From NCBI GenBank assembly GCA_965198005.1, contig CBDAOI010000002.1, positions 672,001 through 736,000 of the forward strand: a stretch of DNA of 64,000 nt, read 5' to 3'. Positions within the stretch are counted from its first letter, which is position 1. Each line of letters begins with the position of its first letter. Below, one piece after another: positions 14,391-35,645 of the stretch. The notes under the pieces were generated by a model. It ran no database searches and was not told the DNA's origin. It saw only the letters and a program-made list of their open reading frames with translations. Source of the DNA: Spirochaetia bacterium. GTDB taxonomy: Bacteria; Spirochaetota; Spirochaetia; SZUA-6; Bin103. A program made the position numbers and the translations under genes.

Positions 14391-15094
14391 ACACCAATCG
14401 GAACACCAATCGAATACTGGCGACCCTGGGAGTCGTCCTCGTCCTGCTCACCGTAGGAGCCCTGGTGGCGATTCGCGTGTTCGCCGCGCCGGGCCGCGAG
14501 CACCGGGAGGGCGGACCTGCCGCCGATGCCGCCGAACGGCAGCTTGCGGTGGAGCGGTTCACCGGCGTAGAGCTCCACGGCGGGTGGAAGCTGCAGTTCA
14601 CGCGGGCCTCGGAGTACAGCGCGGTGCTGATGGGGGACCGGGAAACCGTCGATGCGGCCGAGGTCTCGACCGCCGGCGACCGGCTCAGCATCCACCTGAA
14701 CGGGAGAATCAGAGACGATCGGTCCGTGCGGATCATCATCACCGCGCCGACGATCTCGGCGCTGACCTTGGCCGGAGCCGTCGACGGCCGGATCGCCGGG
14801 CTCGAAGCAACGCAGCTCACGGTGGTCACCGCAGGAGCGTCCAAGCTGGTCTTCAAGGACAGCACCATTGGTGACTTGATGCTGGAGACCGCGGGCGCCG
14901 CCAACATCGACCTGGGCGCGTCTCTGGTAGAAAACGCAGTGCTCGACATGGCGGGAGCCAGCCAGCTCACGATCAATCTGAACGGCGGCTCGCTGACCGG
15001 GCGGGTGCGCGGTGTCGGCAACGTCAGCTACACGGGCGATGCGAGCACGGTGGATCTCGACACCGCCGCGCTGGTGAAGGTCGGCCGCAAGTAG
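14387..15094 (+). CDS. DUF2807 / GIN-domain membrane-anchored protein
   Basis: N-terminal TM helix followed by beta-solenoid repeats (AGAVDG, AGASKL, AGAANI, AGASQL, GVGNVSYTG). Confidence 0.75.
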   Translation: MNTNRNTNRILATLGVVLVLLTVGALVAIRVFAAPGREHREGGPAADAAERQLAVERFTGVELHGGWKLQFTRASEYSAVLMGDRETVDAAEVSTAGDRLSIHLNGRIRDDRSVRIIITAPTISALTLAGAVDGRIAGLEATQLTVVTAGASKLVFKDSTIGDLMLETAGAANIDLGASLVENAVLDMAGASQLTINLNGGSLTGRVRGVGNVSYTGDASTVDLDTAALVKVGRK

Positions 15095-15145
15095 CTCGCA
15101 CGGCGCGCAGGGCGGCGCGTCCGCAAACCGGCTTATCGGCACGCC

Positions 15146-15325
15146 GTGGATCCTTGGGAACACCACCCGTGGTTCCGGCTGCGGCTGCTGAAGTACAGCA
15201 TCCGGATCTGGGATTGGCCGGGAGTGCCGCGCTACGCGCACCTGTTGATCGACCAGACGCAGGCGGGCGGCAACGAAGACCTGCGGCGGATCGTGGTGTA
15301 CATTGCGACCACGACACCGGCACCG
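15146..15325 (+). pseudogene. collapsed remnant of an Rpn (PD-(D/E)XK putative transposase) gene
   Basis: W.RLRLLKY..RIWD / WPGVPRYAHLLIDQT / EDLRRIVVYIA blocks resemble separated segments of Rpn proteins, here juxtaposed. Confidence 0.45.
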
Positions 15326-17078
15326 CCAACGGGTACTCACCATCCGCGCGCTCCGTCACCTGATTCCACTCCTGGGCCGCTACGCGTTGCCGCTGGCGGC
15401 GGGCTTTGCGTTCATGCTGGCCCAGAACTGGGGGTTTGCGCGCATCCCGGTGTGGATCCAGCGCCTGCTGGACGAGATCGTGGGCGCCAACCGGCTGCCG
15501 GTGGTGCGCGCCGCCGCGCTGGCCGCGGTCGGGTTCACCGTGCTGGCCGGCGGCTGCATGTTCCTGATGCGCAAGCTGATCATCGGGGTCTCGCGGCGCA
15601 TCGAGTACGATCTCCGGGATGCGCTGTTCCGGCGCCTGATCAGCCTGCAGTATGACTTCTTCCAGCGCCGCCGCACCGGCGACCTGATCTCGCGCTGCAC
15701 CAACGACCTGACCGACGTCCGCATGCTGCTCGGCCCGGCAATGATGTACATCCCGGACGCCCTGTCGCGGCTGGCGCTGTTCCTGCCGCTGCTGCTGGAG
15801 CTGCACCTGCTGATGACCATGGCGCTGCTGCTGGTGGCGGCCCTGCTGGTGGCGGTCAACCTGGTGGTGGTCCCCCGCTTCCGGCCGCTGTTCCGCACGG
15901 TGCAGGAGCAGGTGGCGGCGATCAGCGACCACGCGTGGCAGACCGTCACCGGCATCACCACGGTCAAGCTGTACGCCGCCGAGGCACAACAGACGGCGCA
16001 GTTCGCGCGGCTCAACCGCCGCTACGTGCGCGCCAACATGCGGGTGCTGCGAATTCGCGGGCTGCTGTGGCCGCTGATGGGACTGGTGTTCGGGCTGCTG
16101 CAACTGGTGACGCTGTGGCTGGGCGGGTCGGCGGTGATCCGCGGCGAGCTGAGCATCGGCGAGCTGCTGCAGTTCTCGACCATGGTGGCGTTGCTCGCGT
16201 TCCCGATCATGTCGCTGGGCTGGGTCACCTCGCTGCTGCAGCAGGGGGTGAGCGCGATGGAACGCATCGAGACCATCCTGACCGCCCGTCCGGAGGAACG
16301 CACGGGGGCGGCGCTGCCGGCCGGCGGTGTGCGCTTCGCGCTGGAAGGAGTGCGCTACCGCTACCCGGAGGCGGCGCAGGAAGCGCTGCACGGGATCGAC
16401 CTGCGGCTCGAACCGGGCGAGACGGTGGCGATCACCGGGCCGGTGGGGAGCGGCAAGAGCACGCTGCTGGCGCTGCTGACCGCGATCGTGCAGCCCGGCG
16501 CCGGGCGCGTCACGGTGGCGGGGCGGCCACTGGCCGACTTCGATCCGCTGGCGCTGCGCCGGCGGGTGGCGGTGGTGCCGCAGGAGACGTTCCTGTTCTC
16601 GATGACCGTGGCCGAGAACATCGCGATGGGAGCGGAGGACGCGGTGTCCCGGGAGCAGATTGCAGCGGCCGCGGACGCCGCCGCCCTGAGCGCGGACCTC
16701 GCCACCTTCCCGGACGGCTACGACCAACTCGTCGGCGAGCGCGGCATCACCCTCTCCGGCGGCCAGAAGCAACGCCTGGCCCTGGCCCGCGCGCTGGTCA
16801 GGGAGAGCGACCTGCTGATCCTCGACGACGCGCTCTCCAGCGTCGATTCGGCCACCGAAACCGAGATCCTGGCCGCGTTGCGGGGGCAGGCCGGGAGCCC
16901 GGCGCGCACCGTGCTGCTGGTGTCGCAGCGCACCTCGGCGCTACGGCTGGCCGACCGCATTCTGGTGCTGGACGGAGGCCGCATCGTGGAGCAGGGCAGC
17001 CACGACGAGCTGCTGCGCGCCGGCGGCCGCTACGCGCGGCAGGCGGAGCTGCAGCGGCTGGAGCAGTACCTGGCATGA
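15303..17078 (+). CDS. heterodimeric ABC exporter subunit A (TM+NBD, degenerate site)
   Basis: GPVGSGKST, LSGGQKQR, Walker B LILDDA (D instead of E), switch SQR instead of H. Exact start uncertain. Confidence 0.9.
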   Translation: MRPRHRHRQRVLTIRALRHLIPLLGRYALPLAAGFAFMLAQNWGFARIPVWIQRLLDEIVGANRLPVVRAAALAAVGFTVLAGGCMFLMRKLIIGVSRRIEYDLRDALFRRLISLQYDFFQRRRTGDLISRCTNDLTDVRMLLGPAMMYIPDALSRLALFLPLLLELHLLMTMALLLVAALLVAVNLVVVPRFRPLFRTVQEQVAAISDHAWQTVTGITTVKLYAAEAQQTAQFARLNRRYVRANMRVLRIRGLLWPLMGLVFGLLQLVTLWLGGSAVIRGELSIGELLQFSTMVALLAFPIMSLGWVTSLLQQGVSAMERIETILTARPEERTGAALPAGGVRFALEGVRYRYPEAAQEALHGIDLRLEPGETVAITGPVGSGKSTLLALLTAIVQPGAGRVTVAGRPLADFDPLALRRRVAVVPQETFLFSMTVAENIAMGAEDAVSREQIAAAADAAALSADLATFPDGYDQLVGERGITLSGGQKQRLALARALVRESDLLILDDALSSVDSATETEILAALRGQAGSPARTVLLVSQRTSALRLADRILVLDGGRIVEQGSHDELLRAGGRYARQAELQRLEQYLA

Positions 17079-18868
17079 CCGAGGGGCCCCGCGACCTGCG
17101 GCTGCTGGCACGGCTGCTGCGCTACGTGCGCGCGCATCCGCTGCCGCTGGCGGCCGCGGCGCTGCTGGTGCTGGTCACCGACTTGCTGCAGGTGCTGGTG
17201 CCGTACCTGCTCAAGGTGGGCATCGACCGCGACCTGGCGGCCGGCGACCCGGCCGGCCTGGCGCGCACCTCGCTGCTGCTGGCCGCGACCCTGACCGGAC
17301 AGCTCGGCGGCCAGGTGGCGTTCGCCTACACCGTGGAGTACCTGGGCCAGCGCCTGCTCTACGACCTGCGCATGCACCTGTTCCGCAAGGTGCTCGGCCT
17401 GGGCCACGACTACTTCGACCGCACCGCGGTCGGCGCCACCCTCACCAACGTCACCAGCGACGTCGAGGCGATCCGCCAGTTCATCTCCCAGGGGCTGGTC
17501 TCCCTGCTCGGCGACTCGTTCCAGGTGCTGGTGATTCTCGGCGCCATGCTGTTGATCAACTCGCGGCTGGCGCTGGCGGCGTTCCTCACCCTGCCGTTCT
17601 TCGGCGTGGTCACCTGGCTGTTCCGCAACGCCATCCGCCACGACTACGGCGCGGTGCGCGAGGCCAACGCCGAAATCAACACCACCCTGGTCGAGGCGAT
17701 TACCGGCATGCGCGAGGTGACCCTGCTCAACTACCAGCGGCGGATCCTGGCCACCTTCACCGCCCACAACCGCCGCTACCTGGAAGCGTTCCTGCGGGTG
17801 GTCAACTCCTACTCCTATTACTTCCCCGCCCTGGAGCTGCTCGCCACGCTCAGCCTGATCATCATCCTCGGCTACGCCCACCGCGCGCTGGGGACCGCGG
17901 TGCAGCCGGGCGAGATCTTCGCCTTCTTCGCCTACATCATGATGCTGTACCGGCCGTTGCGGCAGTTGGCCGAACGGTTCAACACGTTTCAGGCCACCCT
18001 GGCCGCGGCCAGCCGCATTTTCCGCCTGCTCGACCGCGCCGAGTCGATCACCGAGCCTGAACGTCCGCGGCTGCCGGCGGGGGCCGGGCGCGGCGACGGC
18101 CGCGGAACGCCGGCGGCGGCGGTGGCGTTGCATGACGTGCGGTTCGGCTACGACGCGGCCCACCCGGTGCTGGAGGGCCTGTCGTTCGCGGTCGAGCCGG
18201 GCGAACGGGTGGCGCTGGTAGGCAGCACCGGAGCCGGCAAGAGCACCGTGATCAACCTCGTCAACCGGCTGTATGACGTGCAGCACGGGCGGGTGCTGGT
18301 GGACGGCACCGACGTGCGCCGCCTGCCCCTGGCCTACCTGCGCCGGCGGATCGCCACCGTGCCGCAGGACCTGTTCCTGTTCAGCGGCTCGATCGCCGAC
18401 AACATCTCGCTGGGCGCGCCCCGCGTGACCCGCGCCCAGGTGGAGGCGGCGGCCGACGCGGTGGGCGCGACCCGGTTCATCCGCGCCCTGCCGCGCGGCT
18501 TCGACCACGACGTGCTGGAGGAGGGCAAGTCGCTCTCCTCGGGCCAGAAACAGTTGCTCGCCTTCGCCCGCGCCTTCCTGCTCGACCCCGGCGTGGTGAT
18601 CATGGACGAAGCCACCGCCAGCGTCGACGCCGAATCGGAACGGGTCATCGAGACCGCGCTCGACACCCTGCTGCACGGCCGCACCGCGATCATCATCGCC
18701 CACCGCCTGTCCACGATCCGCTCGGCGCAACGCATCCTGGTGCTCCACCACGGCCGCCTGGTGGAGGCCGGCACCCACGCCCACCTCCTGGCCCACGACG
18801 GCGTCTACGCCCGCCTCTACCGCGTGCAGCTCCTGTCCCTGGCGCCGGACGCCACCGCCGCCGGGTAG
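17075..18868 (+). CDS. heterodimeric ABC exporter subunit B (TM+NBD)
   Basis: ATG 17075 overlaps the upstream TGA; GSTGAGKST, LSSGQKQL, IMDEAT, IAHRLST. Confidence 0.9.
   Translation: MTEGPRDLRLLARLLRYVRAHPLPLAAAALLVLVTDLLQVLVPYLLKVGIDRDLAAGDPAGLARTSLLLAATLTGQLGGQVAFAYTVEYLGQRLLYDLRMHLFRKVLGLGHDYFDRTAVGATLTNVTSDVEAIRQFISQGLVSLLGDSFQVLVILGAMLLINSRLALAAFLTLPFFGVVTWLFRNAIRHDYGAVREANAEINTTLVEAITGMREVTLLNYQRRILATFTAHNRRYLEAFLRVVNSYSYYFPALELLATLSLIIILGYAHRALGTAVQPGEIFAFFAYIMMLYRPLRQLAERFNTFQATLAAASRIFRLLDRAESITEPERPRLPAGAGRGDGRGTPAAAVALHDVRFGYDAAHPVLEGLSFAVEPGERVALVGSTGAGKSTVINLVNRLYDVQHGRVLVDGTDVRRLPLAYLRRRIATVPQDLFLFSGSIADNISLGAPRVTRAQVEAAADAVGATRFIRALPRGFDHDVLEEGKSLSSGQKQLLAFARAFLLDPGVVIMDEATASVDAESERVIETALDTLLHGRTAIIIAHRLSTIRSAQRILVLHHGRLVEAGTHAHLLAHDGVYARLYRVQLLSLAPDATAAG
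18404..18812 (+). repeat. island-flanking direct repeat, left copy (inside the exporter 3' end)
   Basis: atctcgctg...cacgacggcgtctacgccc recurs near-identically at 25985-26413. Confidence 0.92.
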
Positions 18869-18908
18869 TCTCCCGGCGGCGTGCGGCGAGCCGCAACGGA
18901 CGGTGAAG

Positions 18909-19961
18909 TTACTTATAGGTCGAGCAGGCTGGACACGTGACAGCCTCCCCCGGATTACTTGCCGCGCGATGATAGTCTATGGCATCAAGACAACCGCTAT
19001 TGATCAAACCACTGACCTGATTCTCGAATGCTGCTCGATCAACAGCGTACATACCACCCCGTGCGCCTTCAAAACTGCAATTCCAGGCCGCAAGTGCTTG
19101 TCCATAGAGCAGAGCCGCGTGCACGCCGCGGGCACCGACCCGGCGTAGCCCCCTCTGCCCGCCGACAGACGTCTTAGCAATCAATCCTGCTGTGCACCAG
19201 TCGCCCGAGCCACAGGGATCGGCGACCCGTGGCACCCGAAAAGGCTTCTGATGCATCCACTTGGACACCCGGGCTCCCCGCCCCAGCCGATGGCGATACT
19301 TCAGACCTCGTTCTCCAAGCGTATGCACCTCAAGCAGTGGCCCAGACGCACTGTCGATCGAGCCCCAGATGTCAACCGGACGTCCGTGCGCATACTTCAC
19401 GACGTGGGCGAGTGAAATCGCCTCTGCCACTAACCTTCCATCTGCCCGTCCGGATGGTTCAAACACTACCACAGCCCCGTGAGACGACGCCTCGGCAGCC
19501 AGAGCAAGGATCGCACGCGACGGCCGATCAAAAAAAAACACTGACGCATCTGAGACTTCCGGCTTGACTCTCTCTGCCGAAGAAACCGTGATAGGCTTAA
19601 AACTCGGCAGCCTCTTACCGCACTGCGGGCACGACCAAGAAAAACGATGCCGTGGACGGCTGTCTCCCTCAAGTACTATTTCATGAACTACCATGGGCGT
19701 GTCACTGGTCGGAGCGCAGCTAGTCCAATCCAGGTGAACTCCCCAGCGCCCCATATCCCTACGAATCCGCTCCGAACCAGCGTCGCCCCTCATCCGCGCG
19801 ACCGGGTAAGCATCCCATCCAAGCCACGACAGAATGCACAATACATTCCCACAAGTTCCACCCGTCCAACAGCCAATGGGTACATCCGGCTGCCAACTAA
19901 TGACCACATCAAGGGCTATTAACCCTGTCCCATAAACTTTCGGGTGAGTAACTGAATTCAT
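18909..19961 (-). CDS. PfkB/ribokinase-family kinase with CxxC motifs
   Basis: GTGLIALD, GGTCGNV, signature DPCGSGDWCTAG; WSCPQCG insert and C-terminal CPAC. ATG 19961 overlaps the upstream TGA. Confidence 0.85.
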   Translation of the reverse strand: MNSVTHPKVYGTGLIALDVVISWQPDVPIGCWTGGTCGNVLCILSWLGWDAYPVARMRGDAGSERIRRDMGRWGVHLDWTSCAPTSDTPMVVHEIVLEGDSRPRHRFSWSCPQCGKRLPSFKPITVSSAERVKPEVSDASVFFFDRPSRAILALAAEASSHGAVVVFEPSGRADGRLVAEAISLAHVVKYAHGRPVDIWGSIDSASGPLLEVHTLGERGLKYRHRLGRGARVSKWMHQKPFRVPRVADPCGSGDWCTAGLIAKTSVGGQRGLRRVGARGVHAALLYGQALAAWNCSFEGARGGMYAVDRAAFENQVSGLINSGCLDAIDYHRAASNPGEAVTCPACSTYK

Positions 19962-21049
19962 ATTGTCGGGCGGCCCTCCGGATACACTTCGCCCTCCAAC
20001 CATAAATGTACGATACTTGGCTGAACAACTGTGTCCAGTACACTTTCCATCATGTCGTAGCCAATTGACTCAAGATAAGCCACGGGCAAGTCGCGCTCCA
20101 ACGCCGCCAGAAGAGCGCCAAGTGCCATCACTTTGCTGCCATGCGGGGAGAGAACGAGCATCGAACCTCCGGTCTCCGAGAATACCGCGTTCCGAAGGTC
20201 ATCTAGTCTAAGAAGAGTCCGATAGAGGTCCAACGGATCTCCCTCGTCGGCGTACACGATGTTGCGCGCATCGACCGACCATGTGTTCTCGAAGTCGGCC
20301 AGATATTCCTCCGCCAGCCTGTCGCCGAAACGAGGGTCTGTGGCTGGAAACGGAAGTATGGGGCACGTATCGTGAGGGTCAACGAAATCGTAGAGGCGCG
20401 TGAGTGCTCCCCGCATCCCAAAAGCCAGCTGTGGGAGCCACAACCGTGCCGCACCGCTGGCTTCAGAGAGAGTCGAGCGCCCCTTGAAACCATGAACGTA
20501 GGCCGGTACGTCGCCGGGGACTGGGCGTATCTTGTCATCAAGGAGTGGATCGTGAACAACGACTACATGTAGATTGGTCTGTCGTCCGTGCCGACCGATA
20601 AGCTCGACGAAGTAGCGAATTATGGGGAATATGGTGCCTGCGGACAACGCACTAATATCGACTACAATATCAGTTACACCATTCAGACTCTGTTGACGAA
20701 GGACGTTTATTATGTTCCGTCCTCCGACCACGGCACCGTCCTGCCCAAAGATGTCGATCGATGCGACTTGGGAGTCGGGGAGCACATTGAGAATGACGCT
20801 GGTGTTCTCGTTCGCCCGGTTGGATTGCCCCCGCGGCGGATTGGGGCGGTCCTCTCGGATCAACAGTGCACGTACATTGATCGTCTCATTGGCGAGCCGT
20901 TCAGCGACAATACATGATCGAGGATCGAACCCCGCGCCTGCGACAAGAAAGGCTAGGCGGTGGGGCTGGGCAAAGTAACGCGCGAGGAACCGATCGACGT
21001 CGTCCCCACTGTGGGCGACACAGGGATCCCAGTGGGATCGGTAGTCCAC
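19958..21049 (-). CDS. hypothetical alpha/beta Rossmann-like protein (possibly CARF-like)
   Basis: 363 aa; FLVAGAGFDPRS, IVVDISALS, LSPHGSKVMALGALLAA; operon-coupled. Confidence 0.7.
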   Translation of the reverse strand: MDYRSHWDPCVAHSGDDVDRFLARYFAQPHRLAFLVAGAGFDPRSCIVAERLANETINVRALLIREDRPNPPRGQSNRANENTSVILNVLPDSQVASIDIFGQDGAVVGGRNIINVLRQQSLNGVTDIVVDISALSAGTIFPIIRYFVELIGRHGRQTNLHVVVVHDPLLDDKIRPVPGDVPAYVHGFKGRSTLSEASGAARLWLPQLAFGMRGALTRLYDFVDPHDTCPILPFPATDPRFGDRLAEEYLADFENTWSVDARNIVYADEGDPLDLYRTLLRLDDLRNAVFSETGGSMLVLSPHGSKVMALGALLAALERDLPVAYLESIGYDMMESVLDTVVQPSIVHLWLEGEVYPEGRPTI

Positions 21050-21050
21050 T

Positions 21051-22952
21051 TCAGTCCTCGTCCATCAGGTTGATCAGATCATGGCTACGTCGCTCAAGGA
21101 AGCCGCCGCGCTTTAGCGTCAGTCCATGGTGAAGACGTAGTACACCGCCCAGCTCGATGAGGCACCATAGCCGTTTTTTTGTGCTGTGATTTGGGACCAT
21201 CACGAATGCGTTATAGGCGATACCAAACTGAAGCACCTGTGCTAGGTGTGGAAGATCTTGAGGAATGGTGTTGAACTCATCTTGTGGGATACCGAAGGCA
21301 GTAGCACCGCCGCGGAGTGACGCATTACCCTCTAGGCTTTTCGCGACGCATTCGGCGGCCATGCCGTCGGCTATCCGGCGGACAAATCGACATTGGGGGA
21401 AGCTCCACTCATCCACCATCTGTGTCGCACGTTCCCGGAGTAGCTTGTGTTGTAGACCGCTTGGGAGCGTGGCGTTCTTTCCGCGGATGAGCTGAGTCTC
21501 TGCCTGTGAGACGAGACGAGCGCAGAGCTGCAAGAACTGCTCAGCATTCTCCGAACTCGCGTCGCTCAAGGTGTCGATACCGAAAAAATACGGAAGTTCG
21601 TACTTATGCAACAAGTGGATGCGTGCTCCGTCGGCGACGCCAGAATCGACCTTCAGAGGTCGACTAAGCTCCAACATCTCTTCGTCGTCCACGAACAGAC
21701 TAGGTTGCACGCGATTAGCGTGACGCTCAAAAAGCACCGAAAGAATACCTAGCCTGAGGGCTTCGGAGCTCTCCCCGGTATTCGCGAGGTAATCGTCAAT
21801 CATTTTCTCAAAGCTGACACGACGCTCGTGTGGAACTCGGCGCTGACGCTGCAGGACATCGACTTCTTTTGTTAGTTGCTGGCGCTTACCGGTGGGGAGC
21901 TCCGCCGCCATGGTCGGCAGCAGATCACCGAGGCTGTTGAGACGACGGCGGTTGAACACCTCCATCTGACTCAGGTATCGCCCAGCCATATCTTTGGCCA
22001 TCGTACGAAACGCTCGCCGCTGTTTCGTACGATTTTCACCGCCCTGCATCCAGATGACCGTCATTTCTCGTGAGCGCTTGAGTGCGGACTCCTCGGAATC
22101 AGTAGTCTGACCCAGAAGCACGTCCCTTGGCGTAAGCGCATCGAGCCGCGTTAGTACCCATCTTGAGACCTTGAGGTCGCGCTGTGAAAGCCAACGCCAA
22201 AGCGCTAAGAGCTGACTGGGATGTAGACTATGTGCGTCGTCAAAGATGATTAGCGGACGGAGGTCCAGGGTATCCTGACGATATTTGATCCGGAATGCCT
22301 CAATGACGTCGAACGGTCGGTAAGCGGCGCTTGCCTCACGGTCGATACTCTCAACACCCGGCGGCAGGAGAGCAGCCGATATGCGATAGATTGCGCGCTC
22401 GACGATTCGGGCGCGCTCGCGCAAACCCGGTCCCTCTGTGCCCCCAATCTCGGTGAGTGCCGCGTCGGCATCGGAGCGCGGAATAATCTCGACTTGGTCA
22501 AGCGGCACTCCCGCCGCTTCGACGTTCCGAAGCCAAGCGAGTACGGAACGCGCCTGGAGAAGTTCGATCATCAGTCCTGTCTTGAGTTCATCAGTGTAAT
22601 CGAACTCCCAAAAATCCCGGTATTCAGCCTGGAGTGGGAGGCGAGCACCGATAAGAGTTGGCCGCTCCTCCTTAATCGCTCCGCAGTTCGTGAGTGTGTC
22701 AATTAACGGCCTATAGTTGGTCATCCCCCGATTACCTAACAATGTGCTCAGCGCTGTAAACTCGAAGAGTCGCGCCAACGTCGTCTTCCCGCTACCCGGG
22801 GTGCCGACAATCACTGCTAGTCGATCGTAGAGTCTCTCTTCTTTGGCCGGCTTCTGGAAAAACCTCGCGACTGGTTCTGGAGTGACCAAGGCGAGAAATG
22901 CCTCATCGTCCCGGAGGTATTCAGTCGCTCTTTTTTCAAACGGATTTGCCAT
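21051..22952 (-). CDS. P-loop NTPase (ORC/CDC6- or STAND-like)
   Basis: MANPF N-terminus, Walker A IVGTPGSGKTT, Walker B LIIFDDAH, long helical C-terminus; AGGGG RBS. Confidence 0.8.
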   Translation of the reverse strand: MANPFEKRATEYLRDDEAFLALVTPEPVARFFQKPAKEERLYDRLAVIVGTPGSGKTTLARLFEFTALSTLLGNRGMTNYRPLIDTLTNCGAIKEERPTLIGARLPLQAEYRDFWEFDYTDELKTGLMIELLQARSVLAWLRNVEAAGVPLDQVEIIPRSDADAALTEIGGTEGPGLRERARIVERAIYRISAALLPPGVESIDREASAAYRPFDVIEAFRIKYRQDTLDLRPLIIFDDAHSLHPSQLLALWRWLSQRDLKVSRWVLTRLDALTPRDVLLGQTTDSEESALKRSREMTVIWMQGGENRTKQRRAFRTMAKDMAGRYLSQMEVFNRRRLNSLGDLLPTMAAELPTGKRQQLTKEVDVLQRQRRVPHERRVSFEKMIDDYLANTGESSEALRLGILSVLFERHANRVQPSLFVDDEEMLELSRPLKVDSGVADGARIHLLHKYELPYFFGIDTLSDASSENAEQFLQLCARLVSQAETQLIRGKNATLPSGLQHKLLRERATQMVDEWSFPQCRFVRRIADGMAAECVAKSLEGNASLRGGATAFGIPQDEFNTIPQDLPHLAQVLQFGIAYNAFVMVPNHSTKKRLWCLIELGGVLRLHHGLTLKRGGFLERRSHDLINLMDED

Positions 22953-22964
22953 ATAACATGTCCC

Positions 22965-23929
22965 CTAAAGGTGTCGCTGGCGACGACGAAAGAGCGGGCG
23001 CATTCCTGGTGCTTGAATGTTGCCTCGAACCCCACCATCGCTCTCGGCCCAAAGCAGAGCAATCGCGTTGTTAGGCGTGTTGTGTGCGAGCACAAGAGGG
23101 AGCGCGCAGCCACCATAGCCAAGGCCTAGATGACTCACGCCGCCGATTTCGGTATGTTTCGTCTGGATTATCGGGTCGTAGTAGATCTGCGTGAGTCTTA
23201 TGAAGTCGTCATGCACGCCGGAACCAGCTCGAATCGGAAGTTCAGGCGGAAGCACCATGCCGAAGGAAGTCCGGGGAGTCTTCCTCCAGCTATCGGGGAA
23301 CGCGTCGCTCGCCTCTTTGAGACGCTCGCTGATTGCTCCTGCGGCTTCCGACGATGCTACATAGTGGTGCACGCAAAGCACCCAGTTATCCTCGAATAGC
23401 TGATCATCCGGAAGCGTGGCATTGGCGATTTCCACTTCACCTGAGTGACTTGAACGAATTGTTCGTTGGTAAGTAAGCCCGCATTCGCGTGGCGAATCGT
23501 GTCTATACGTGCTCCGTCGCTCAATCCCATGAATAGCGTCTGGCGGCGCAATCGCTCGGTGGCCGCGTGGGCGGCCGAGTCGGCGAGCACTCGATAAGGC
23601 TGAATGCCGTATTCGGCTGCGACAAGGCGTACTATATGTTCTCGGACAATGCGCGGATAGAACTGCTCCACGAGCCGCTGCATCTCTATCTGGCCGATGT
23701 AGACGAGGGAGCGACGCACGAAGGTGTAAGCGGTATCCCGCTCGTGTGCCTCGAACTGCTGGAGCCACGTGACCAAATTCTCAATAAAGCGCATACCAGC
23801 CTGGAAGGCTTGGTAGCCATCGTATTTTAGACGCGCCATCAGCTTCAGCCAAGCGAACTCTTGACGGGCTTGATAATCAGTCCAATTCATGATCTGGCCG
23901 AGGACTTTCAGACCAAGGTCCTGATTCAT
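22965..23929 (-). pseudogene. phosphoribosyltransferase-like (PRTase-CE-type) protein split by an internal deletion/frameshift near 23435
   Basis: N-part MNQDLGL...GLSDGARID...NEQFVQVTQV (ATG 23929 overlaps the upstream TGA) changes frame to C-part ...GYGGCALPLVLAHNTPNNAIALLW...RPLFRRRQRH. No DD-x-G PRPP loop in either part. Confidence 0.65.
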
Positions 23930-25869
23930 TCGAGTGATCCAGCCCCAAACCTCAGCCGGCCGTCTTGTACTTCTAGTGCCGAGAGATACTCGAACGTGAC
24001 GACCGGACCGCGCTGACCTGGCTGCCCCAGATGCCAACAGGTTGCGGGGTCGGTGCTGATTTCATCAACTCCGAGTGCAAACGGTTCGCTGAGCAACTCA
24101 TGGTCGTTGCCCGGCCAACGGCCGCGATCGCCGATCACGAGGATAGGCTCGTCGCCAACCGTCTCGCGTAGCCGTCTAACGACGTTCATCTTGGACACGC
24201 CGGGCGCAACGATATCCACCGAATGGCTGGAGCGGGTGACGGCGACTCCCTGGATGCCGGTTGTCCGGATCACTTGATGGGCGAGATCCCAAAGTCGACA
24301 CTCGCGCATGATCCTTGTGGCCTCAAGCGTGATTTGTAAGGGGCGCTCTTCCTGGCAGACGAATTCAGCAAGCTCTGGCTGATGGCGCAATGCGTGTGCA
24401 AGTGGCCGAAGGCAATCGTGGGCTCTCTCGGTTCCATCCGGCGAGTCGTTGTTATCGAGCGACGCGACTTCAGCGCCGTTGTAGTATCCAACGAGAATGA
24501 GAGGCCAGAGCGGGCGAGCAAGGCGCTCCTGAAGGTCGCGTCGGACCGATGCGCCGCGGCCAGTTGCGATCCCAATATACGCACCGGCGCTGGCTAGGCG
24601 AGCGAGTTCGGAGGCCATTTCCGGATCCACGGGTTCGGAGCGACGCCGGGTATCGACCACCGTTCCATCGTAGTCGAGAACGACTCCGGCGAATCGAGCG
24701 TCCCGCAAACGGGCAAGGAACGCGGTGAGCGCATCGTGCCAGCGGCCGATCTCCGTTAGCGTGGCTACGTTACTTTGATCGACGTTTGCTTTCCGCGCGA
24801 TCGCTGCGGACACACGTGGCGTAAGACGCGACGACCCGGTAGCGCACTTGGAGCGTGGGAGACTCAAGTTATAGAGTCTACGTCCGAACTCGGGGACGCC
24901 GGGACGTCCGGGGTCGATCCCCCGGATGCATCCAACCCATCCCGTGATCCTCAACGCTGCGAGCAGCGATGCAAGTGCTACTGCACTCGGCCCACCCTGG
25001 AAAACGATCCGTGCTTGGGGGACGCCGATGGGAATCAGGTCAAGCGTCCGCTCGGCGAGCACGCGATCCGCACTTGTGACGAAGGCGAGCACAGCGCTCG
25101 TGCCGCTGCGCTTGGCGAGCCAATGATGTCGTCCGTGGGCGAAGTTCCGGTAGTCGGCAAGCTGAACGTGGCCCAGCGCGGCCTCCGTAAACTTCGACTC
25201 GAGATCGATCGCTCCAATCCGCGTTGCAGGGCCATGAAGGACGAGTGTGGTGGGCCGCGTCCAGAGCGGAGCTGTGGTCGCTTCCCACGCTTCCAGGTCA
25301 GCGGTGGCATCCCGAAGCAGCGGCTTCAGTTGGTCCACCGTGTCCCGCCAACCCTTATGTGAACCGAACTCGGCAGCGTAGGCTCGGGTCAGAAGCGAGG
25401 TGAAGCCGAATAGCGAATTGGTGGCGAGGAAGCCGTCCTTGCCGGCGGGTGGTGGGTAGAGGAGCAGGTCGACGAATGCGTGCTGTCGGCAGAGGTTGAC
25501 CAAAGGACTGACCTCACGCCCGCATAGGACGGCGATCTGGCGCGGCTCACGTAGGATCAACGTCTCTGCCGCCGCCATGATGTCGTTGTTGCTCCCTCTA
25601 GCGCTTAGCAGCCATGTGGCGATGGTCGCATCGAGTGGCTCGTCAGTTGCGTCGAGCGGCGTGGCCACCGTGGATAGGAGGCCCGTGTAGCGCTGATGCA
25701 GACCGGCTAGCGCATGGGCACCGGTGAGTGATCCCCCGGAACCGATTACTCGAAGCGGCGAACGACCGGCGACACGAACGGCTTGTTGCATAGGCCGGAG
25801 GTCGGCTTCCTCTGCCCAAGCGAACGTCTCGGCCAGCATCGCCATCTCTCCCGTATATGGCCGTGCCAT
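23926..25869 (-). CDS. SIS (sugar isomerase, GlmS-like) plus HAD-IIB phosphatase fusion
   Basis: IGSGGS, LSARGSN, DGFLATNS, ESKFTEA...RNFAHGRH (tandem SIS); VVLDYDGTV, IATGRG, YNGA, VSK, IGD...GND (HAD motifs I-IV). Confidence 0.8.
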   Translation of the reverse strand: MARPYTGEMAMLAETFAWAEEADLRPMQQAVRVAGRSPLRVIGSGGSLTGAHALAGLHQRYTGLLSTVATPLDATDEPLDATIATWLLSARGSNNDIMAAAETLILREPRQIAVLCGREVSPLVNLCRQHAFVDLLLYPPPAGKDGFLATNSLFGFTSLLTRAYAAEFGSHKGWRDTVDQLKPLLRDATADLEAWEATTAPLWTRPTTLVLHGPATRIGAIDLESKFTEAALGHVQLADYRNFAHGRHHWLAKRSGTSAVLAFVTSADRVLAERTLDLIPIGVPQARIVFQGGPSAVALASLLAALRITGWVGCIRGIDPGRPGVPEFGRRLYNLSLPRSKCATGSSRLTPRVSAAIARKANVDQSNVATLTEIGRWHDALTAFLARLRDARFAGVVLDYDGTVVDTRRRSEPVDPEMASELARLASAGAYIGIATGRGASVRRDLQERLARPLWPLILVGYYNGAEVASLDNNDSPDGTERAHDCLRPLAHALRHQPELAEFVCQEERPLQITLEATRIMRECRLWDLAHQVIRTTGIQGVAVTRSSHSVDIVAPGVSKMNVVRRLRETVGDEPILVIGDRGRWPGNDHELLSEPFALGVDEISTDPATCWHLGQPGQRGPVVTFEYLSALEVQDGRLRFGAGSLE

Positions 25870-25984
25870 GGTCGCCTAACTGCCCTCCCAGGCTGTCCTC
25901 GTCCAGTGACGCACAAGATGGACACAGGATGGTGGAGTCTCGTCGCTCTTGCAAGGACAGGGAAACCGGACCTGCCTGGAGCAA

Positions 25985-26413
25985 ATCTCGCTGCGCGCGC
26001 CGGGCGTGACCCGCGCCCAGGTGGAGGCGGCGGCCGACGCGGTGGGCGCGACCCGGTTCATCCGCGCCCTGCCGCGCGGCTTCGACCACGACGTGCTGGA
26101 GGAGGGCAAGTCGCTCTCCTCGGGCCAGAAACAGTTGCTGGCCTTCGCCCGCGCCTTCCTGCTCGACCCCGGCGTGGTGATCATGGACGAGGCCACCGCC
26201 AGCGTCGACGCCGAATCGGAGCGGGTCATCGAGACCGCGCTCGACACTCTGCTGCACGGCCGCACCGCGATCATCATCGCCCACCGCCTGTCCACGATCC
26301 GCTCGGCGCAACGCGTCCCGGTGCTCCACCACGGCCGCCTGACCCCACGGCCGCTACGGTGCTGGAGGCCGGCACCCACGCCCACCTCCTGGCCCACGAC
26401 GGCGTCTACGCCC
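25985..26413 (+). repeat. island-flanking direct repeat, right copy (ABC NBD gene fragment)
   Basis: Encodes ...LEEGKSLSSGQKQLLAFARAFLLDPGVVIMDEATAS... identical to subunit B, with a ~20-bp insertion near 26342 causing a frameshift. Confidence 0.92.
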
Positions 26414-26641
26414 AGATTGATGATCGGCTGCGAAAGAAGGCGGAGAATGGCTGGACGTTGTCTCGATTGTGGGTGATGGGACATCTCGGCGGCGTCCCGG
26501 ATGTCTGAACCGCTACGTATCGCGGCAGTCACGTTGCGGCCCGAGGGTTCGGCTGCGTTCGGCTCCGCGTCGACAGGTAGGACGGGCGCAGGATGGGGTG
26601 GGGTCTATAAACGTTCCACGGCCGCTGGGGCCGGTGTCAGC

Positions 26642-28831
26642 TCACGTCCGATCGTGGGGTGGTTCTACGCGCACGTCGGGCAGCCATGCCAGCCACGACG
26701 GCAGGTACCAGTTCCCGCGGCCCAGGATCTCCATGGTGGCCGGCACCAGGATCGAGCGCACCAGCGTCGCATCGAGCAGCACCGCGACGGCGAGCCCGAA
26801 TCCCACTTGCTGGTTGATGATGGTCTTCCCTGACGCGAAGGCGCCGAACACTGCGACCATGATCAGAGCAGCCCCCGTGATCAACCCGGCGGTGGAGCGC
26901 AGCCCATACGCTACCGCGTCCGCATTGTTCCCGGTCTGATCGTAGCGCTCGCGGATCCGGCTCAGCAGGAAAACATGGTAGTCCATGGAAAGACCGAAGA
27001 CGATGGCGAACAGGAACAGCGGGATCCACACGTCGATCACTGCGGCGTGTTGAAATCCCAGAAGGTCCGTCGCCATCCCCTTCTGAAATACCAGCACCAT
27101 CAGGCCGTAGGCGGTCCCAATGGACAGCAGGTTCATGAACACCGCCTTTATCGGGACCACGATTGACCGAAAGACAAGCAGCAATACCGCGAAACCGAGA
27201 CCGAGCACGAACGCGAATACGATCGGCGTGTACCTTTCCACTACGGCAAAAAGATCCGCGGTAACCGCGGTTTCCCCGCCAACGAATACTTCCGCCGAGA
27301 CGCCCTCGAATGCCGCCGGAATGTATTGCTCGCGCAGCACTGAAACCGCCTCGACGGTAGTGTGACTTCGCGGCTCTCCGGGAAGCGGGAGGGTCATCAA
27401 GGCCAGATCCCCGGAAGGGCCGTGTACGATGACCGGAGGTATGGGAAACCTGGCATCCTCGGTCAACGAGCTCGCCAGGCGTGCGATCGCCGCCTGCACC
27501 TGCGGACTGCCGAGGTCTCCCTCGATGACAATCTCGGCAGGATTGACCAGACCGAAAGAGAACTTCTCCTCCAGAACGAAGAAGGCTTCCTTGGTTCGAG
27601 CCCCGTCGGGGAACGTGTCCAACCCATTGATCCCCGTCTCTATTTGAAAGTAGAACAGCGTGCAGGCGACCATCGGACCGCCGATCGCGAGGATGCTGAC
27701 GATCGGGAACTTCGTTACGAGTCGCGTGGTTTTGCCCCAGAAACCGTCGGCCGCACCGTAGCCGCCAGCGTCGCTTCGTCTTCGGACGAAAGGGATCCTC
27801 AAGCGATCGATAGCCGGTCCCAGCAAGGCAAGCGCAGCAGGCAGCAGTGTCAGGGTGGCCCCGAGTGCGACCATGACGACCACAATGGCGCCGATGCCAA
27901 GCGACCGGAAGAACGTCGCCGGCACGATCAACATCCCGCACAGAGAGACGACCGTGGTGACACCGCTGAACAGCACCGTCCGACCCGCCGTTTCGCCAGC
28001 TCGGATCACCGCCTCGAGCTTGCCCAGGCCGCGGCTCAGCTCCTCTCGGAATCGCGATACCATGAGGAGCGAATAGTCGATCCCTACCGCCATACCGATC
28101 ATGCTCACCATCATCGTCACGAAGAACACCAACTGAAATGCCTGACCGATCAGCGCGACCATTCCCAACGCGACGATGATCGCCACGATTGCAAGCCCGA
28201 TCGGTAGCAGCGCGGCCACGATACTGCCGAAGAGCACGAGCAGAATGATCAGCGCCACGGGAAGGCCGAACCGCTCGCCCTGCTCCAGGTCATGTCTGCT
28301 CAGCTCGTTGGTCTCGAAGGCGATGCTGGCAGCTCCACCCATCAGCACGCGGAAATCATCTTCCTCGTCCGCCTTGGCGACGAGGTCCACGACCCTCGCG
28401 ACGTTCGCCGTAGCCTCATCGAAGTCGCCGGCCATGACCACCTGCACTATGGTGGTCTTGCGGTCGCGTGACACGAGAGTTTCGTCATTCGTCTGATAGT
28501 AATTCCGACCAGCGGCCACAACGCCACTTCCGAGCGAGAGGATCTCGGCGGAGATGGACTCGACCTTCTGTCGAAGCTCCGGGGCATCGACCGTGAGCGT
28601 GTCCGACTGTATCACGACCAGTTCGAGCATCGGTTTGCGCCCTCGAAGCTTTTCCTCCAGGAGTCGGGAAGCCACCGCGGACTCGGCATTCCCGGATAGC
28701 GTCAATTCCGTGGTGGTGGCGCCTGTAAGCATGGTCCGGATGAGAATCGCCGCAATCGCCACGAGCGCTATCCAAACGCCTATTGTGGCCCACGGCCGGC
28801 GCACACTGACTCGAGCCAAGAAAGCGGGCAT
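26642..28831 (-). CDS. MMPL-family (RND) lipid/terpenoid transporter
   Basis: Two TM blocks with GMAVGIDYSLLMVSRFREE and FGLSMDYHVFLLSRIRE, LDATLVR...VPA...NWYLP. Start 28831 or 28897. Confidence 0.92.
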   Translation of the reverse strand: MPAFLARVSVRRPWATIGVWIALVAIAAILIRTMLTGATTTELTLSGNAESAVASRLLEEKLRGRKPMLELVVIQSDTLTVDAPELRQKVESISAEILSLGSGVVAAGRNYYQTNDETLVSRDRKTTIVQVVMAGDFDEATANVARVVDLVAKADEEDDFRVLMGGAASIAFETNELSRHDLEQGERFGLPVALIILLVLFGSIVAALLPIGLAIVAIIVALGMVALIGQAFQLVFFVTMMVSMIGMAVGIDYSLLMVSRFREELSRGLGKLEAVIRAGETAGRTVLFSGVTTVVSLCGMLIVPATFFRSLGIGAIVVVMVALGATLTLLPAALALLGPAIDRLRIPFVRRRSDAGGYGAADGFWGKTTRLVTKFPIVSILAIGGPMVACTLFYFQIETGINGLDTFPDGARTKEAFFVLEEKFSFGLVNPAEIVIEGDLGSPQVQAAIARLASSLTEDARFPIPPVIVHGPSGDLALMTLPLPGEPRSHTTVEAVSVLREQYIPAAFEGVSAEVFVGGETAVTADLFAVVERYTPIVFAFVLGLGFAVLLLVFRSIVVPIKAVFMNLLSIGTAYGLMVLVFQKGMATDLLGFQHAAVIDVWIPLFLFAIVFGLSMDYHVFLLSRIRERYDQTGNNADAVAYGLRSTAGLITGAALIMVAVFGAFASGKTIINQQVGFGLAVAVLLDATLVRSILVPATMEILGRGNWYLPSWLAWLPDVRVEPPHDRT

Positions 28832-28865
28832 GGCTAAGCTCCTCCGGTGTGAAGTGTCTGATCGC

Positions 28866-30041
28866 CTACCACTTGCCGGACTCCTCTGCGTAAGCATGAT
28901 GCGGCATCGTGTAGTTGATCCCTTCCTGATCGAACGCCGAAACCTGGAGCAGTCCCATGAAGTCGGTCAGGTTGGTGTGTACTGCGAGCTTGGGAAACCA
29001 CTTGGCCATTACTCGGTGATAGCGAGTCTGCACGCGAAACCAAGGGAGAACTCCGAAGGTGAACGCCGGTGGATACCGAAGCTGGTCGGCAAGCGACTTG
29101 CCTATCAGCGAGCGAGAAATGAGGTACACGTACTTCGCCAGCCGTTTGCGGTCCCCCGGCTCCGTGTTGCCTACGAATATGGGGGCGGAGTTGACCAGAG
29201 AGTGGGATATGGCAATCGACTCCAGGTCGGCAGGGGGCTCGCACGCGATGCCGACTTCGAACAGCTTCAGGGCATCGGCTTCCCCTCTGAACAGCATGCT
29301 CTCGGGAATGCCCATCAGGAAACCGGCGTAACGCCAGACCTGCATGAAGCTGCTGCGTTCGCGGTCATCGAACACGCCGCCGAGCGACTTCAAGTGCTTG
29401 AGCAGGCGCGCCGAAAACGCAGTTAATGCGAAGCCCAGGTGCGCCGCGCTGATCGGCACACCCCAGGCTTCGGTATCCCAGTCGACGGCGTCCCGCAGCA
29501 GCATCCTGACCTGCGCGTGGATCAGACGAATGCGGACCGACAGCTTCCATCCATCGCCGAACCGTTCAAGTCCACCGGGAAGAAATATCTCCATCATGTG
29601 CCGGTTGTTCTGCTGCAGACGGCGGAGACCCTGGCTGCGCAATCGGCCGGTTATGAAGAACGACTTGCTGATGTTCGTGGTGAAGCCTTCGACCAGCGCG
29701 CCGCCGACCATTCCGGCCAGCACGAACCTCGAGTTTCGGTGAAACATGCGGATGCCGGGCATGAACTCCGCTTGATCCACCCAAGCAGGAGGAACCTCGA
29801 CCGCTTTGAAGAAATCTCTGACAATGGACGGAGCACCGCGGAGCGCGGGATCGTCCGGATCGTTCATCGCCGTACGCACGAGCCGTGCCGATTCTTCCGG
29901 CTGACGTGAGGCGAGGCTTGCCACCAACTCGTCCGCGGCGGGATCTCCGACGAGCGTGTGCGCGACGTAGTTCGATGCCATCTGAGCATCGATAGCGCAT
30001 GCGTTCTCGTAACCCGAGATGTAATCAGACGGCATGGCCAT
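28866..30041 (-). CDS. MpaB/Lcp-like (DUF2236) heme oxygenase
   Basis: GDPAAD, PPAWVD, RIRLIHAQVR (conserved His), WGVPIS, WRYAGFLMGIP. Confidence 0.85.
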   Translation of the reverse strand: MAMPSDYISGYENACAIDAQMASNYVAHTLVGDPAADELVASLASRQPEESARLVRTAMNDPDDPALRGAPSIVRDFFKAVEVPPAWVDQAEFMPGIRMFHRNSRFVLAGMVGGALVEGFTTNISKSFFITGRLRSQGLRRLQQNNRHMMEIFLPGGLERFGDGWKLSVRIRLIHAQVRMLLRDAVDWDTEAWGVPISAAHLGFALTAFSARLLKHLKSLGGVFDDRERSSFMQVWRYAGFLMGIPESMLFRGEADALKLFEVGIACEPPADLESIAISHSLVNSAPIFVGNTEPGDRKRLAKYVYLISRSLIGKSLADQLRYPPAFTFGVLPWFRVQTRYHRVMAKWFPKLAVHTNLTDFMGLLQVSAFDQEGINYTMPHHAYAEESGKW

Positions 30042-32262: not shown

Positions 32263-32266
32263 TCCC

Positions 32267-33544: not shown

Positions 33545-33668
33545 CAATGAAACCCGCCGCCCGTTAGTCCCATGCCATTCAAATCTCCCTCCAAACAGAG
33601 TGAAAAACAAAACACTGTTTGTCAACAAAAATGCGTAGCCTCGGGACACATTTTTGGGTCCATACAGG

Positions 33669-33696
33669 TCGGGAATTCGGGTGTACGTTTCAGGAA
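33669..33696. promoter_or_regulatory. putative LytTR binding repeat upstream of the terpenoid operon
   Basis: TCGGGAA (33669) and TCAGGAA (33690), 21 bp apart; more copies nearby. Confidence 0.5.
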
Positions 33697-33846
33697 GTTA
33701 CTCTAGCTCATATTCCCGTTCTTCAGGTTCCTGAATTGATGTTTTGTTCCTGGTATTGTCTGTTAACTTCGGGAAACCGGGACGACCACAAACCGGCGGC
33801 GCGAATTCGCTCGACGGATCTGAAAAGCGATTGGAGAACCCGCGAA

Positions 33847-35369: not shown

Positions 35370-35645
35370 CTAACGGTTGACGCGAGGCCGGTCGATTACC
35401 CGCGCAAGCTGCAGCACGGCCGGTTCCATGGCGCCCTCCGGCACGGCGGCGTAGCCCAGGTGCAGCCCCGGCCGCGCCCCCGGTCCCAGCCAGTACGGGG
35501 ACAGAGGCCGCAGCGCGAGGCCGGCGCGCCGGCCGGCTTCGGCGACGGCGCAGTCGTCCACGCCATCGGCCAGCCACGCCGCCACCTGCATCCCCGAGTC
35601 GGTCGGCGCGAGCTCCAGCAGCCCCGCCAGATGCCTGCCCTCTCG
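35370..35645 (-). pseudogene. C-terminal fragment of a MocR/GabR (PLP aminotransferase-domain) regulator
   Basis: SGMQVAAWL...DD...AGLALRPLSPYW...GLHLGYAA; the N-terminal part is absent. Confidence 0.65.

Follow-up and report, generated by a model that had tools for sequence, protein, structure and literature searches.

Organization of the island

We analysed a 64,000-nt stretch of DNA (the window) from a Spirochaetia bacterium (contig CBDAOI010000002.1 of assembly GCA_965198005.1, positions 672,001–736,000 of the forward strand). At positions 18909–25869 the window carries an island of five reading frames that lie head to tail, all on the minus strand. These gene regions, called here G1 to G5, correspond to a sugar isomerase (SIS)/HAD-IIB fusion, a phosphoribosyltransferase (PRTase) of the PRTase-CE family, an ORC/CDC6-like ATPase, a CARF6-family protein and a PfkB-family sugar kinase, and the PRTase-CE gene is broken by an internal deletion (Table 1). 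G1 and G2 overlap by ATGA (23929–23926), a 12-bp gap separates the stop codon of G2 from the ATG of G3, a single base pair lies between the TGA of G3 and the GTG of G4, and G4 and G5 again overlap by ATGA (19961–19958). The island has a GC content of 0.582, whereas that of the two ATP-binding cassette (ABC) exporter genes on its left is 0.709 and that of the right-flank genes 0.637. Using Pfam, we found neither a transporter nor a regulator among the five proteins.

The initial annotation, which was made from the nucleotide sequence, had described five co-directional minus-strand genes joined by two ATGA overlaps, a 1-bp gap and a 12-bp gap, in an AT-richer island free of transporter and regulator genes, and all of this is seen in the sequence. 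Two details needed correction. The island had been placed on the strand opposite to its flanks; this is true of the left flank, which lies on the plus strand, but the right-flank genes (26642–33649) lie on the minus strand, as the island does. The count of five genes holds for the gene regions, but G2 is not one open frame. A scan of positions 18700–26700 for promoters and terminators found nothing upstream of G1 or after G5, and such a scan is uninformative for a high-GC organism. Metatranscriptome library X11 contained two short contigs identical to parts of G2 and G1; carry-over of DNA is possible, and they were not counted as expression.

Table 1. Features of the cassette and of its insertion site (window coordinates)
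Feature	Position	Strand	Basis
G1, double-SIS (residues ~1–340) and HAD-IIB (~390–610) fusion, 647 aa, intact	23926..25869	-	Pfam, NCBIfam, AlphaFold 2 (AF2) model, Foldseek
G2, PRTase-CE gene, broken by internal deletion	22965..23929	-	three-frame translation and homologue alignment
Deletion junction inside G2	23433..23440	-	alignment; crossed by contigs of runs X1 and X6
G3, ORC/CDC6-like P-loop ATPase, 633 aa, intact; Walker A 50–58, Walker B 236–241	21051..22952	-	Pfam, Atlas, alignment
G4, CARF6-family protein, 363 aa, GTG start, no fused effector domain, intact	19958..21049	-	PADLOC, AF2, VIA-align
G5, PfkB-family sugar kinase, 350 aa, CxxC insert and C-terminal CPAC, intact	18909..19961	-	profile against PDB sequences
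Left direct-repeat copy, within the intact 3' part of an ABC-exporter gene (17075–18868)	18404..18812	+	self-comparison
Right direct-repeat copy, a stand-alone 429-bp piece of that ABC gene carrying a 20-bp insertion	25985..26413	+	self-comparison

The PRTase-CE gene has lost its PRPP-binding loop

The lesion of G2 was mapped against eight intact homologues; intact homologues are 369–382 aa long. The first 164 codons (23929–23438) align in one frame, whose stop comes at 23357, and the final 156 (23435–22965) align in another. About 59 codons (~175 nt) are gone, out of frame, and two stray bases remain at the junction 23438/23435. The loop that binds phosphoribosyl pyrophosphate (PRPP), which consists of a hydrophobic run, an acidic pair and T/S-G-x-T/S, is present in 8 of the 8 intact homologues aligned and is deleted in the window. 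The window copy matches Pfam PF24390 at profile positions 214–253 only (31.8 bits, cut-off 27). Intact homologues from two related loci, L003 and L004, match positions 3–253 of 253 (2.2e-14 and 2.7e-15), and intact homologues also match the PADLOC model PRTase_III-A of retron type III-A effectors (4.6e-12 to 2.5e-20). The G-x14-PNN motif is found both in the C-terminal part of the window copy and in the homologues; the final P of PNNxP is not kept. A search of the G2 profile against PDB sequences gave no match. The gene had initially been annotated as phosphoribosyltransferase-like. From its intact homologues, its family can now be given as that of the retron type III-A effectors (PF24390, PADLOC), and this copy is without the active site.

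It is highly improbable that the break is an assembly or sequencing error and that the gene is intact in the organism. Such an error could be suspected in a four-contig assembly of 90% completeness, and the contigs leave room for a minority allele. However, two contigs from different studies cross the junction without a gap, one of 1447 nt from run X1 (22414–23860, 1 difference) and one of 624 nt from run X6 (22881–23504, 7 differences), and with ~175 nt lost the lesion is no homopolymer slip. Because of its 7 other differences, the X6 contig comes from another strain. The listed contigs of run X2 do not bridge the junction and speak neither for nor against the deletion. Since contigs of two studies cross the junction gap-free, the lesion is not an assembly artefact. 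No second PRTase-CE gene was found in the source genome (4.9 Mb, 90% complete). With the sole PRTase-CE gene of the genome lacking its active site, the system in this organism should be unable to fire; judging from the sequence, the window copy is probably inactive, that is, effector-dead.

We also counted lesions in the related loci described below, with the window excluded. G2 is damaged in 4 of 26 loci: it is truncated in L002, frameshifted in L031 and L035, and has lost ~52 conserved residues in frame in L043. The other genes are damaged in 4 of 95 cases together (G1 in 1 of 23, G3 in 2 of 23, G4 in 1 of 27 and G5 in 0 of 22). This hints that the PRTase is costly and is the part that tends to be lost, which would fit a toxic component.

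The ATPase and the CARF6 protein are predicted to form a complex

G3 matches Pfam PF24389 (3.8e-10, 39.6 bits, cut-off 27) at profile positions 1–63 only, and it also matches AAA_22. Its homologues listed carry PF24389 as a precomputed domain, and a paralogue from locus L010 matches this family over profile positions 30–566 of 571. G3 itself falls into the ORC-CDC6-like clusters of the Atlas with a score of 0.99. The Walker A and B residues G50, P52–T58, D238 and D239 are invariant in 33 sequences. Against PDB sequences, the G3 profile gave only a 33-residue match to the P-loop, and for neither G2 nor G3 did the sequence point to a solved relative.

G4 matches the PADLOC model PDLC01916 (CARF6) over positions 2–344 of 345 (2.8e-126), as well as PDLC01910 (4.3e-93). 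Its AF2 model (pLDDT 69, pTM 0.78) was compared by a wide VIA-align search with 48,161 representative chains. The best matches were Can2 (8q3y; Z 11.3, rmsd 2.7, 131 aligned residues), Card1 (Z 10.6) and Csx1-Crn2 (Z 10.5). Judged by entry title, 20 of the 22 top rows are CRISPR-ancillary or cyclic-oligoadenylate-binding CARF proteins. The initial annotation had called G4 Rossmann-like and had taken the NTPase as the sensor. The former is right as to the fold, since CARF has a Rossmann-like fold, but the identity is sharpened to the CARF6 family. The NTPase, G3, is a P-loop protein of the ORC/CDC6-like kind. Because G4 is a CARF6-family protein, it is more likely than the NTPase alone to be the small-molecule sensor.

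The complex prediction for G3 and G4 scored 0.81 (runs of 0.82, 0.77 and 0.81), compared to 0.00 for the best of three controls. Of 80 solved complexes 58 reached this mark, as did 2 of 110 mismatched pairs, a calibration that is only rough here because the alignments were our own. At least 67% of contacts are common to the runs, and the partner pLDDT is at least 85. The predicted interface takes up ATPase residues 108–142, 181–196 and 242–245, adjoining or just after Walker B.

The sugar-phosphate enzymes keep their catalytic residues

The HAD half of G1 (residues 396–601) was recognized by Pfam as Trehalose_PPase (1.5e-9; 37.8 bits, cut-off 27) and Hydrolase_3 (9e-8; 32.6 bits, cut-off 20.9), and by NCBIfam as HAD-IIB. 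In residues 1–390 Pfam found no domain, SIS included. The AF2 model of G1 is confident (pLDDT 93.4, pTM 0.91), and using Foldseek against PDB we showed that its N-terminal half has a double-SIS fold (E 2.6e-14 to 1e-11, probability 1.00, TMt 0.68–0.77). The structures matched were Lmo0035 (2aml; 2.6e-14, TMt 0.73), NagB-II (7kqa and 8fdb; TMt 0.75–0.77), the isomerase domain of GlmS (1moq) and AgaS (3c3j). The G1 profile gave only weak SIS matches to PDB sequences (7kqa, 9.5e-4; 3fkj, 0.19). The SIS-HAD assignment of the initial annotation is thus borne out, for HAD by Pfam and NCBIfam, and for SIS by fold (Foldseek) and not by Pfam. In 58 diverse sequences, residues S44, G45 and G46 of the glycine/serine loop, D96, E224, E229 and H245 of the SIS half are invariant, as are D399, D401, T403, K560, D581 and D589 of the HAD half, in which all four HAD motifs are present. 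Because these residues are invariant, both halves look catalytically competent from their sequences.

G5 was likewise correctly annotated as a PfkB kinase. As a single sequence it stays below the Pfam cut-off for PfkB (21.3 bits, cut-off 25.8), and the assignment is clear from a 10-sequence profile compared with solved structures: it matches fructokinase 5ey7 over positions 6–302 (3.7e-19), the aminoimidazole-riboside kinase type (1tyy) and ketohexokinases. Residues D248, G251, G253 and D254 of the DxxGxGD motif are invariant in the alignment of 10. A weak match to the ribose-1-phosphate kinase model NF053626 was also found (4.3e-5). The inserted CxxC is invariant in 10 of 10 sequences; the C-terminal CPAC occurs in 6 of 10, and a seventh has CxxC at that place. 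The inserted and the C-terminal cysteines may form a zinc ribbon, which would be unusual for PfkB kinases.

The cassette recurs in mobile contexts

We compared 33 related loci, of which 3 come from genomes, 6 from plasmids (out of 19 matching records) and 24 from metagenome contigs. All five gene regions are present in 18 of the 33, including L031 with its frameshifted G2. Among these 18, the order is G1-G2-G3-G4-G5 in 16 and G2-G3-G4-G1-G5 in 2. A further 14 loci end at contig edges and show consecutive members only, in the same order. Conservation of the gene order had been proposed as a check of the initial annotation, and its outcome is that the same five genes are kept in 18 of 33 loci and the rest are cut or truncated. 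Since the same genes recur together in 33 related loci, the five-gene arrangement is not due to chance. The five genes are all kept even where the CARF protein is only 25–31% identical to that of the window. In L002 (a Vicinamibacterales genome, positions 4929–6979), genes of Mutator-family and DUF772 transposases replace G1 and the start of G2, and G3 is frameshifted near codon 31.

The component families are large. Among 8000 scored candidates in each case, 1415 CARF6 relatives and 1405 ATPase relatives were found at E<=0.001; the best 120 CARF6 relatives are 63–100% identical over 97–100% of the length. The SIS-HAD fusion forms 982 clusters at 50% identity (E<=1e-30). A scan of metagenomes for near-identical relatives found none closer than 71% over the whole ATPase. 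The related loci come from several phyla, and an identity of 60–70% is kept across phyla, which argues that the cassette has been transferred horizontally. The CARF6 model had no match in 400 other genomes of the window's phylum or in 400 genomes of a second phylum, which are samples and do not prove absence.

Matches to the CARF protein occur in 19 plasmid records, of which 9 are typed as conjugative, and in none of 50,697 phage records. In a Sulfitobacter plasmid the cassette lies between a coupling-protein gene and virB11. The Shinella copy has Tn7-like tniB/tniQ, IS3 and an integrase as neighbours, the Rathayibacter copy adjoins SIR2, and the Paraburkholderia and Paenarthrobacter copies adjoin integrases. 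AbiEi/AbiEii lies directly upstream of the cassette in 3 of the 24 metagenome loci (L027 253–2009, L029 2867–4454 and L036 1984–3784). The flanks of the metagenome loci also contain TrbI, T4CP, ArdC, MPTase-PolyVal, integrases, a resolvase, a HEPN protein, a DNA methylase and DISARM-like DrmA/DrmD. In none of the related loci does the cassette itself include a transporter gene, and no transporter is found among the 25 Pfam families most often matched by the 69 flanking open reading frames of the metagenome loci. Thus, the stable metabolic contexts with transporters that would have spoken against the initial annotation were not seen; the cassette is accompanied by plasmid, integrase, transposase and conjugation genes and by no recurrent transporter.

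In 4 of the 33 loci (L010, L011, L042 and L049) a convergent gene of the NADAR family (N-glycosidase family) follows just after the kinase gene. On the Sinorhizobium meliloti plasmid pRRI128_5 (L010, positions 14996–19129) a second, bare triad lies 1 kb from the five-gene cassette, with the NADAR gene and a helix-turn-helix gene between them. This triad consists of a PRTase-CE protein (315 aa), an ATPase of the ORC-CDC6-like family and a CARF6-like protein, and it lacks its own set of sugar enzymes. Because the bare triad exists, we regard it as the core and the SIS-HAD, PfkB and NADAR genes as accessory.

We searched for links between the cassette and CRISPR. Neither Pfam nor PADLOC found a cas gene inside the cassette. 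Of the two Cas10 families looked for in four cassette-bearing genomes, Csm1 was above the cut-off in none and Cmr2 in one, more than 230 kb from the cassette. Because Cas10 exceeds the cut-off in only one of four genomes, and far from the cassette, it is unlikely that the CARF ligand is a Cas10 product.

Insertion site and neighbouring genes

The island is bounded by direct repeats of 409 and 429 bp, in which 399 of 429 aligned positions are identical. On the right, the orphan ABC fragment reads on into unrelated sequence (25985–26508, plus strand) and is a pseudogene left by the insertion event. Three genomes of the same genus have orthologues of the ABC gene on the left, with 88–90% nucleotide identity to it as far as window positions 18846–18894. 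The right repeat copy is only ~85% identical to the orthologues of these relatives. The right copy is therefore far closer to the left copy than to the relatives' genes, which indicates that the duplication arose in this lineage. In the flanks fetched from the three genomes, the island is absent at the corresponding site, and no part of the window between 18.9 and 35.3 kb was found there; one of the three resumes similarity at window 35389–35638. Such a repeat structure would be expected if a circular molecule, bearing the cassette and part of the ABC gene, had integrated by a single crossover. No recombinase gene was found within the 7.2 kb.

Further to the right, a minus-strand block (26642–34941, GC 0.60–0.64) encodes MMPL, an MpaB/Lcp oxygenase, a fusion of FMN_dh with squalene/phytoene synthase, HMG-CoA synthase and a LytTR regulator. 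This block was not found beside the ABC gene in the three genomes of the same genus and may be a second acquired block. On the plus strand, two overlapping genes (37365–43108) encode an 872-aa AAA_21/AAA_15 ATPase of the OLD/AbiEii type and a 1042-aa ResIII helicase-like protein, and they may be a two-gene defence system in their own right, ~11 kb away from the cassette. In L003 (1943–4975) a 1011-aa ResIII helicase-like gene on the same strand ends 20 nt before G1. A relation between it and the ResIII gene of the window (39980–43108) was considered and rejected: the two share common helicase motifs only, and no link was shown.

Proposed function and alternative explanations

We suggest, with a probability of about 0.6, that the cassette is a CRISPR-independent, CARF/ATPase-controlled and PRPP-consuming system of the abortive-infection type with an accessory sugar-phosphate module, and that the window copy was acquired horizontally and is effector-dead. 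The CARF protein, a putative small-molecule sensor, would sit on the ATPase domain of the ORC/CDC6-like protein. Together they could act as a switch that detects an invader or a by-product of the invader and releases the PRTase-CE effector. The effector would then consume PRPP or transfer phosphoribose to a target, and the nucleotide supply and growth would stop in an abortive-infection manner. The sugar-phosphate enzymes, which resemble enzymes acting on amino-sugar and ketosamine phosphates and are joined by NADAR in some loci, may make or remove the molecule read by the CARF protein, or they may clear the phosphoribosyl product so that the cell recovers. The initial annotation had likewise proposed a conflict-type rather than a catabolic operon, and the mobile contexts, the AbiE, SIR2 and DISARM-like neighbours and the lack of a recurrent transporter agree with it. 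It is possible, though unlikely, that intact copies work as a CRISPR-independent CARF immune pathway whose signal, a phosphoribosyl or amino-sugar phosphate and not a cyclic oligoadenylate, is made by the PRTase and edited or erased by the double-SIS/HAD protein, the PfkB kinase and, in some loci, NADAR. Such a PRPP-derived signal, read by the CARF protein in complex with the ATPase, would give immunity a new signalling chemistry or amount to reversible phosphoribosylation.

Several observations weigh against the abortive-infection model. If the window is left out, the surplus of G2 lesions falls short of significance (Fisher p 0.064; 0.022 with the window), and it is a trend and not a proof; some lesions on metagenome contigs may also be assembly errors (L035 carries two). 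Many of the flanking genes are not defence genes. The cassette contains no nucleotide cyclase or other signal synthase. The role of the sugar enzymes is deduced from fold and family only, and opposite roles, the making of a signal and the clearing of a product, fit equally. The second half of the G4 model is of middling confidence (pLDDT 50–70), and Foldseek against PDB was not decisive for this protein: generic Rossmann proteins (SUMO E1, methyltransferases) were mixed with Csm6 and Can2 at TM 0.22–0.29. The score of the G3-G4 complex is the model's own confidence, which supports binding but does not show it. Finally, the other four genes of the window keep every family-invariant residue. Therefore, either the deletion in G2 is recent, or these genes are still useful without the PRTase.

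The cassette could instead serve its carrier. A module for addiction, exclusion or anti-plasmid action that serves the plasmid or integrative element, and is not directed against phages, would explain why the CARF protein occurs in 19 plasmid records (9 conjugative) and in 0 of 50,697 phage records, the place of the Sulfitobacter cassette between the coupling-protein gene and virB11, and the TrbI, T4CP, ArdC and MPTase-PolyVal genes in the metagenome-locus flanks. However, chromosomal copies stand beside AbiE, SIR2 and DISARM-like genes, where known anti-phage systems gather, and homologous PRTase effectors act against phages in retrons, according to passages of a report on Retron-Eco11 (PMC12746101). 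We consider a purely carrier-serving module a minority possibility; anti-plasmid and anti-phage roles are also compatible with each other. In another scheme, which goes back to the initial annotation, SIS-HAD and PfkB would make and degrade a sugar or ribosyl phosphate messenger and so set a threshold, the CARF protein and the ATPase would read it, and the PRTase would take part in synthesis instead of being the effector. The presence of a CARF sensor without a cyclase, the retention of catalytic residues by the three sugar enzymes across deep divergence and the weak match of the kinase to NF053626 (4.3e-5) can be explained in this way. This scheme is doubtful: the bare triad of PRTase, ATPase and CARF protein exists, so the sugar enzymes are not needed for the core, and an effector would be missing from the system. 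In retrons the homologue is itself the effector, as stated in the same passages of PMC12746101, and the PRTase is the most often lost gene, which would suit a toxic component.

It is very unlikely that the cassette is a plain metabolic or biosynthetic operon that salvages or synthesizes nucleoside or amino-sugar phosphates and has no conflict role. Four of the five proteins do have enzyme folds of sugar or nucleotide metabolism. However, there is no transporter or regulator in the cassette and no transporter or regulator among the 25 commonest flanking Pfam families (69 open reading frames, metagenome loci), the distribution is sporadic (0 of 800 sampled genomes of two phyla), the 60–70% identity across phyla indicates transfer, and the copies are found on plasmids and beside integrases. 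A pathway operon would also not be expected to include a CARF sensor, an ORC-like ATPase or a retron-type effector. Thus, we favour the abortive-infection cassette. If it is immune, it would show what ligand a CRISPR-free CARF protein reads, how an ORC-like ATPase is gated and what part sugar-phosphate enzymes take in immunity. The broken copy of the window would serve as a natural experiment, hinting at the PRTase as the part that genomes lose.

Comparison with known systems

Among the models of PADLOC-DB v2.0.0, no named system covers the cassette, and only the component models CARF6 and PRTase_III-A match it. Weak PADLOC P-loop hits to mad8, HEC-01A and PDC-S06 cover ~25 residues each. Overall, the cassette comes closest to type III-A retrons in its probable output, and to CARF or STAND-type systems in its proposed control. 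In the full-text literature searched we found no experimental or named description of the cassette; an earlier computational mention of the neighbourhood is possible. This is in line with the initial annotation, which knew of no characterised system of this composition. The term "PRTase-CE" was met in the context of retrons, and "ORC-CDC6-like" in preprints on other systems. The component families are already catalogued as Pfam PF24389 and PF24390 and as PADLOC CARF6. The two Pfam accessions are consecutive, which suggests that these families were catalogued together. CARF6 was reportedly defined in Makarova's 2020 census of CARF proteins.

The cassette resembles enzyme sets that act on amino sugars and Amadori products (GlmS, NagB-II, AgaS) in the double-SIS fold of G1 and in the fructokinase- and ketohexokinase-like G5. 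FrlB/FrlD also pairs a double-SIS enzyme with a PfkB kinase. Unlike these sets, the SIS part of G1 is fused to HAD-IIB, the cassette is mobile and has no permease, and the identity to the solved enzymes is 11–20%.

An Aravind-laboratory preprint (10.64898/2026.10.19.760177) proposes that such systems are under dual control, with an ORC-CDC6-like protein sensing DNA and a second sensor reading a nucleotide. The predicted contact between the ATPase and the CARF protein would fit this idea, and the gene order effector-NTPase-sensor of the cassette mirrors the domain order of conflict systems with STAND/NLR-like and ORC/CDC6-like NTPases. In contrast to the STAND/NLR-like systems, the functions of the cassette are on separate polypeptides and the sensor is a CARF protein.

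Type III-A retrons, such as Retron-Eco11, share the effector family with the cassette: intact G2 homologues have the PRPP loop and G-x14-PNN, a motif that passages of PMC12746101 describe for retron-associated PRTases. In the same passages, the PRPP motif of the PRTase-like effector of Retron-Eco11 is needed for defence, and PRPP falls by ~50% on activation. By analogy, the output of the cassette is likely to be the same, PRPP consumption that leads to abortive infection. In contrast to the retrons, no reverse transcriptase is found among the five cassette proteins (no search for a non-coding RNA was made), the control would be exerted by a CARF protein together with an ORC/CDC6-like ATPase, the gene set also includes three sugar-phosphate enzymes, and in the window the PRPP loop is deleted.

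With the CARF effectors of type III CRISPR-Cas systems (Can2, Card1, Csm6, Csx1 and Can1) G4, whose sequence family is CARF6, shares the CARF fold. It differs from them in having no fused nuclease or effector domain and no linkage to Cas10, and its ligand need not be a cyclic oligoadenylate. To our knowledge, almost all known CARF sensors respond to cyclic oligoadenylates that Cas10 makes. The CARF family described here is large (at least 1400 relatives), moves without CRISPR and is tied to an ORC-like ATPase, an effector of the retron type and three sugar-phosphate enzymes.

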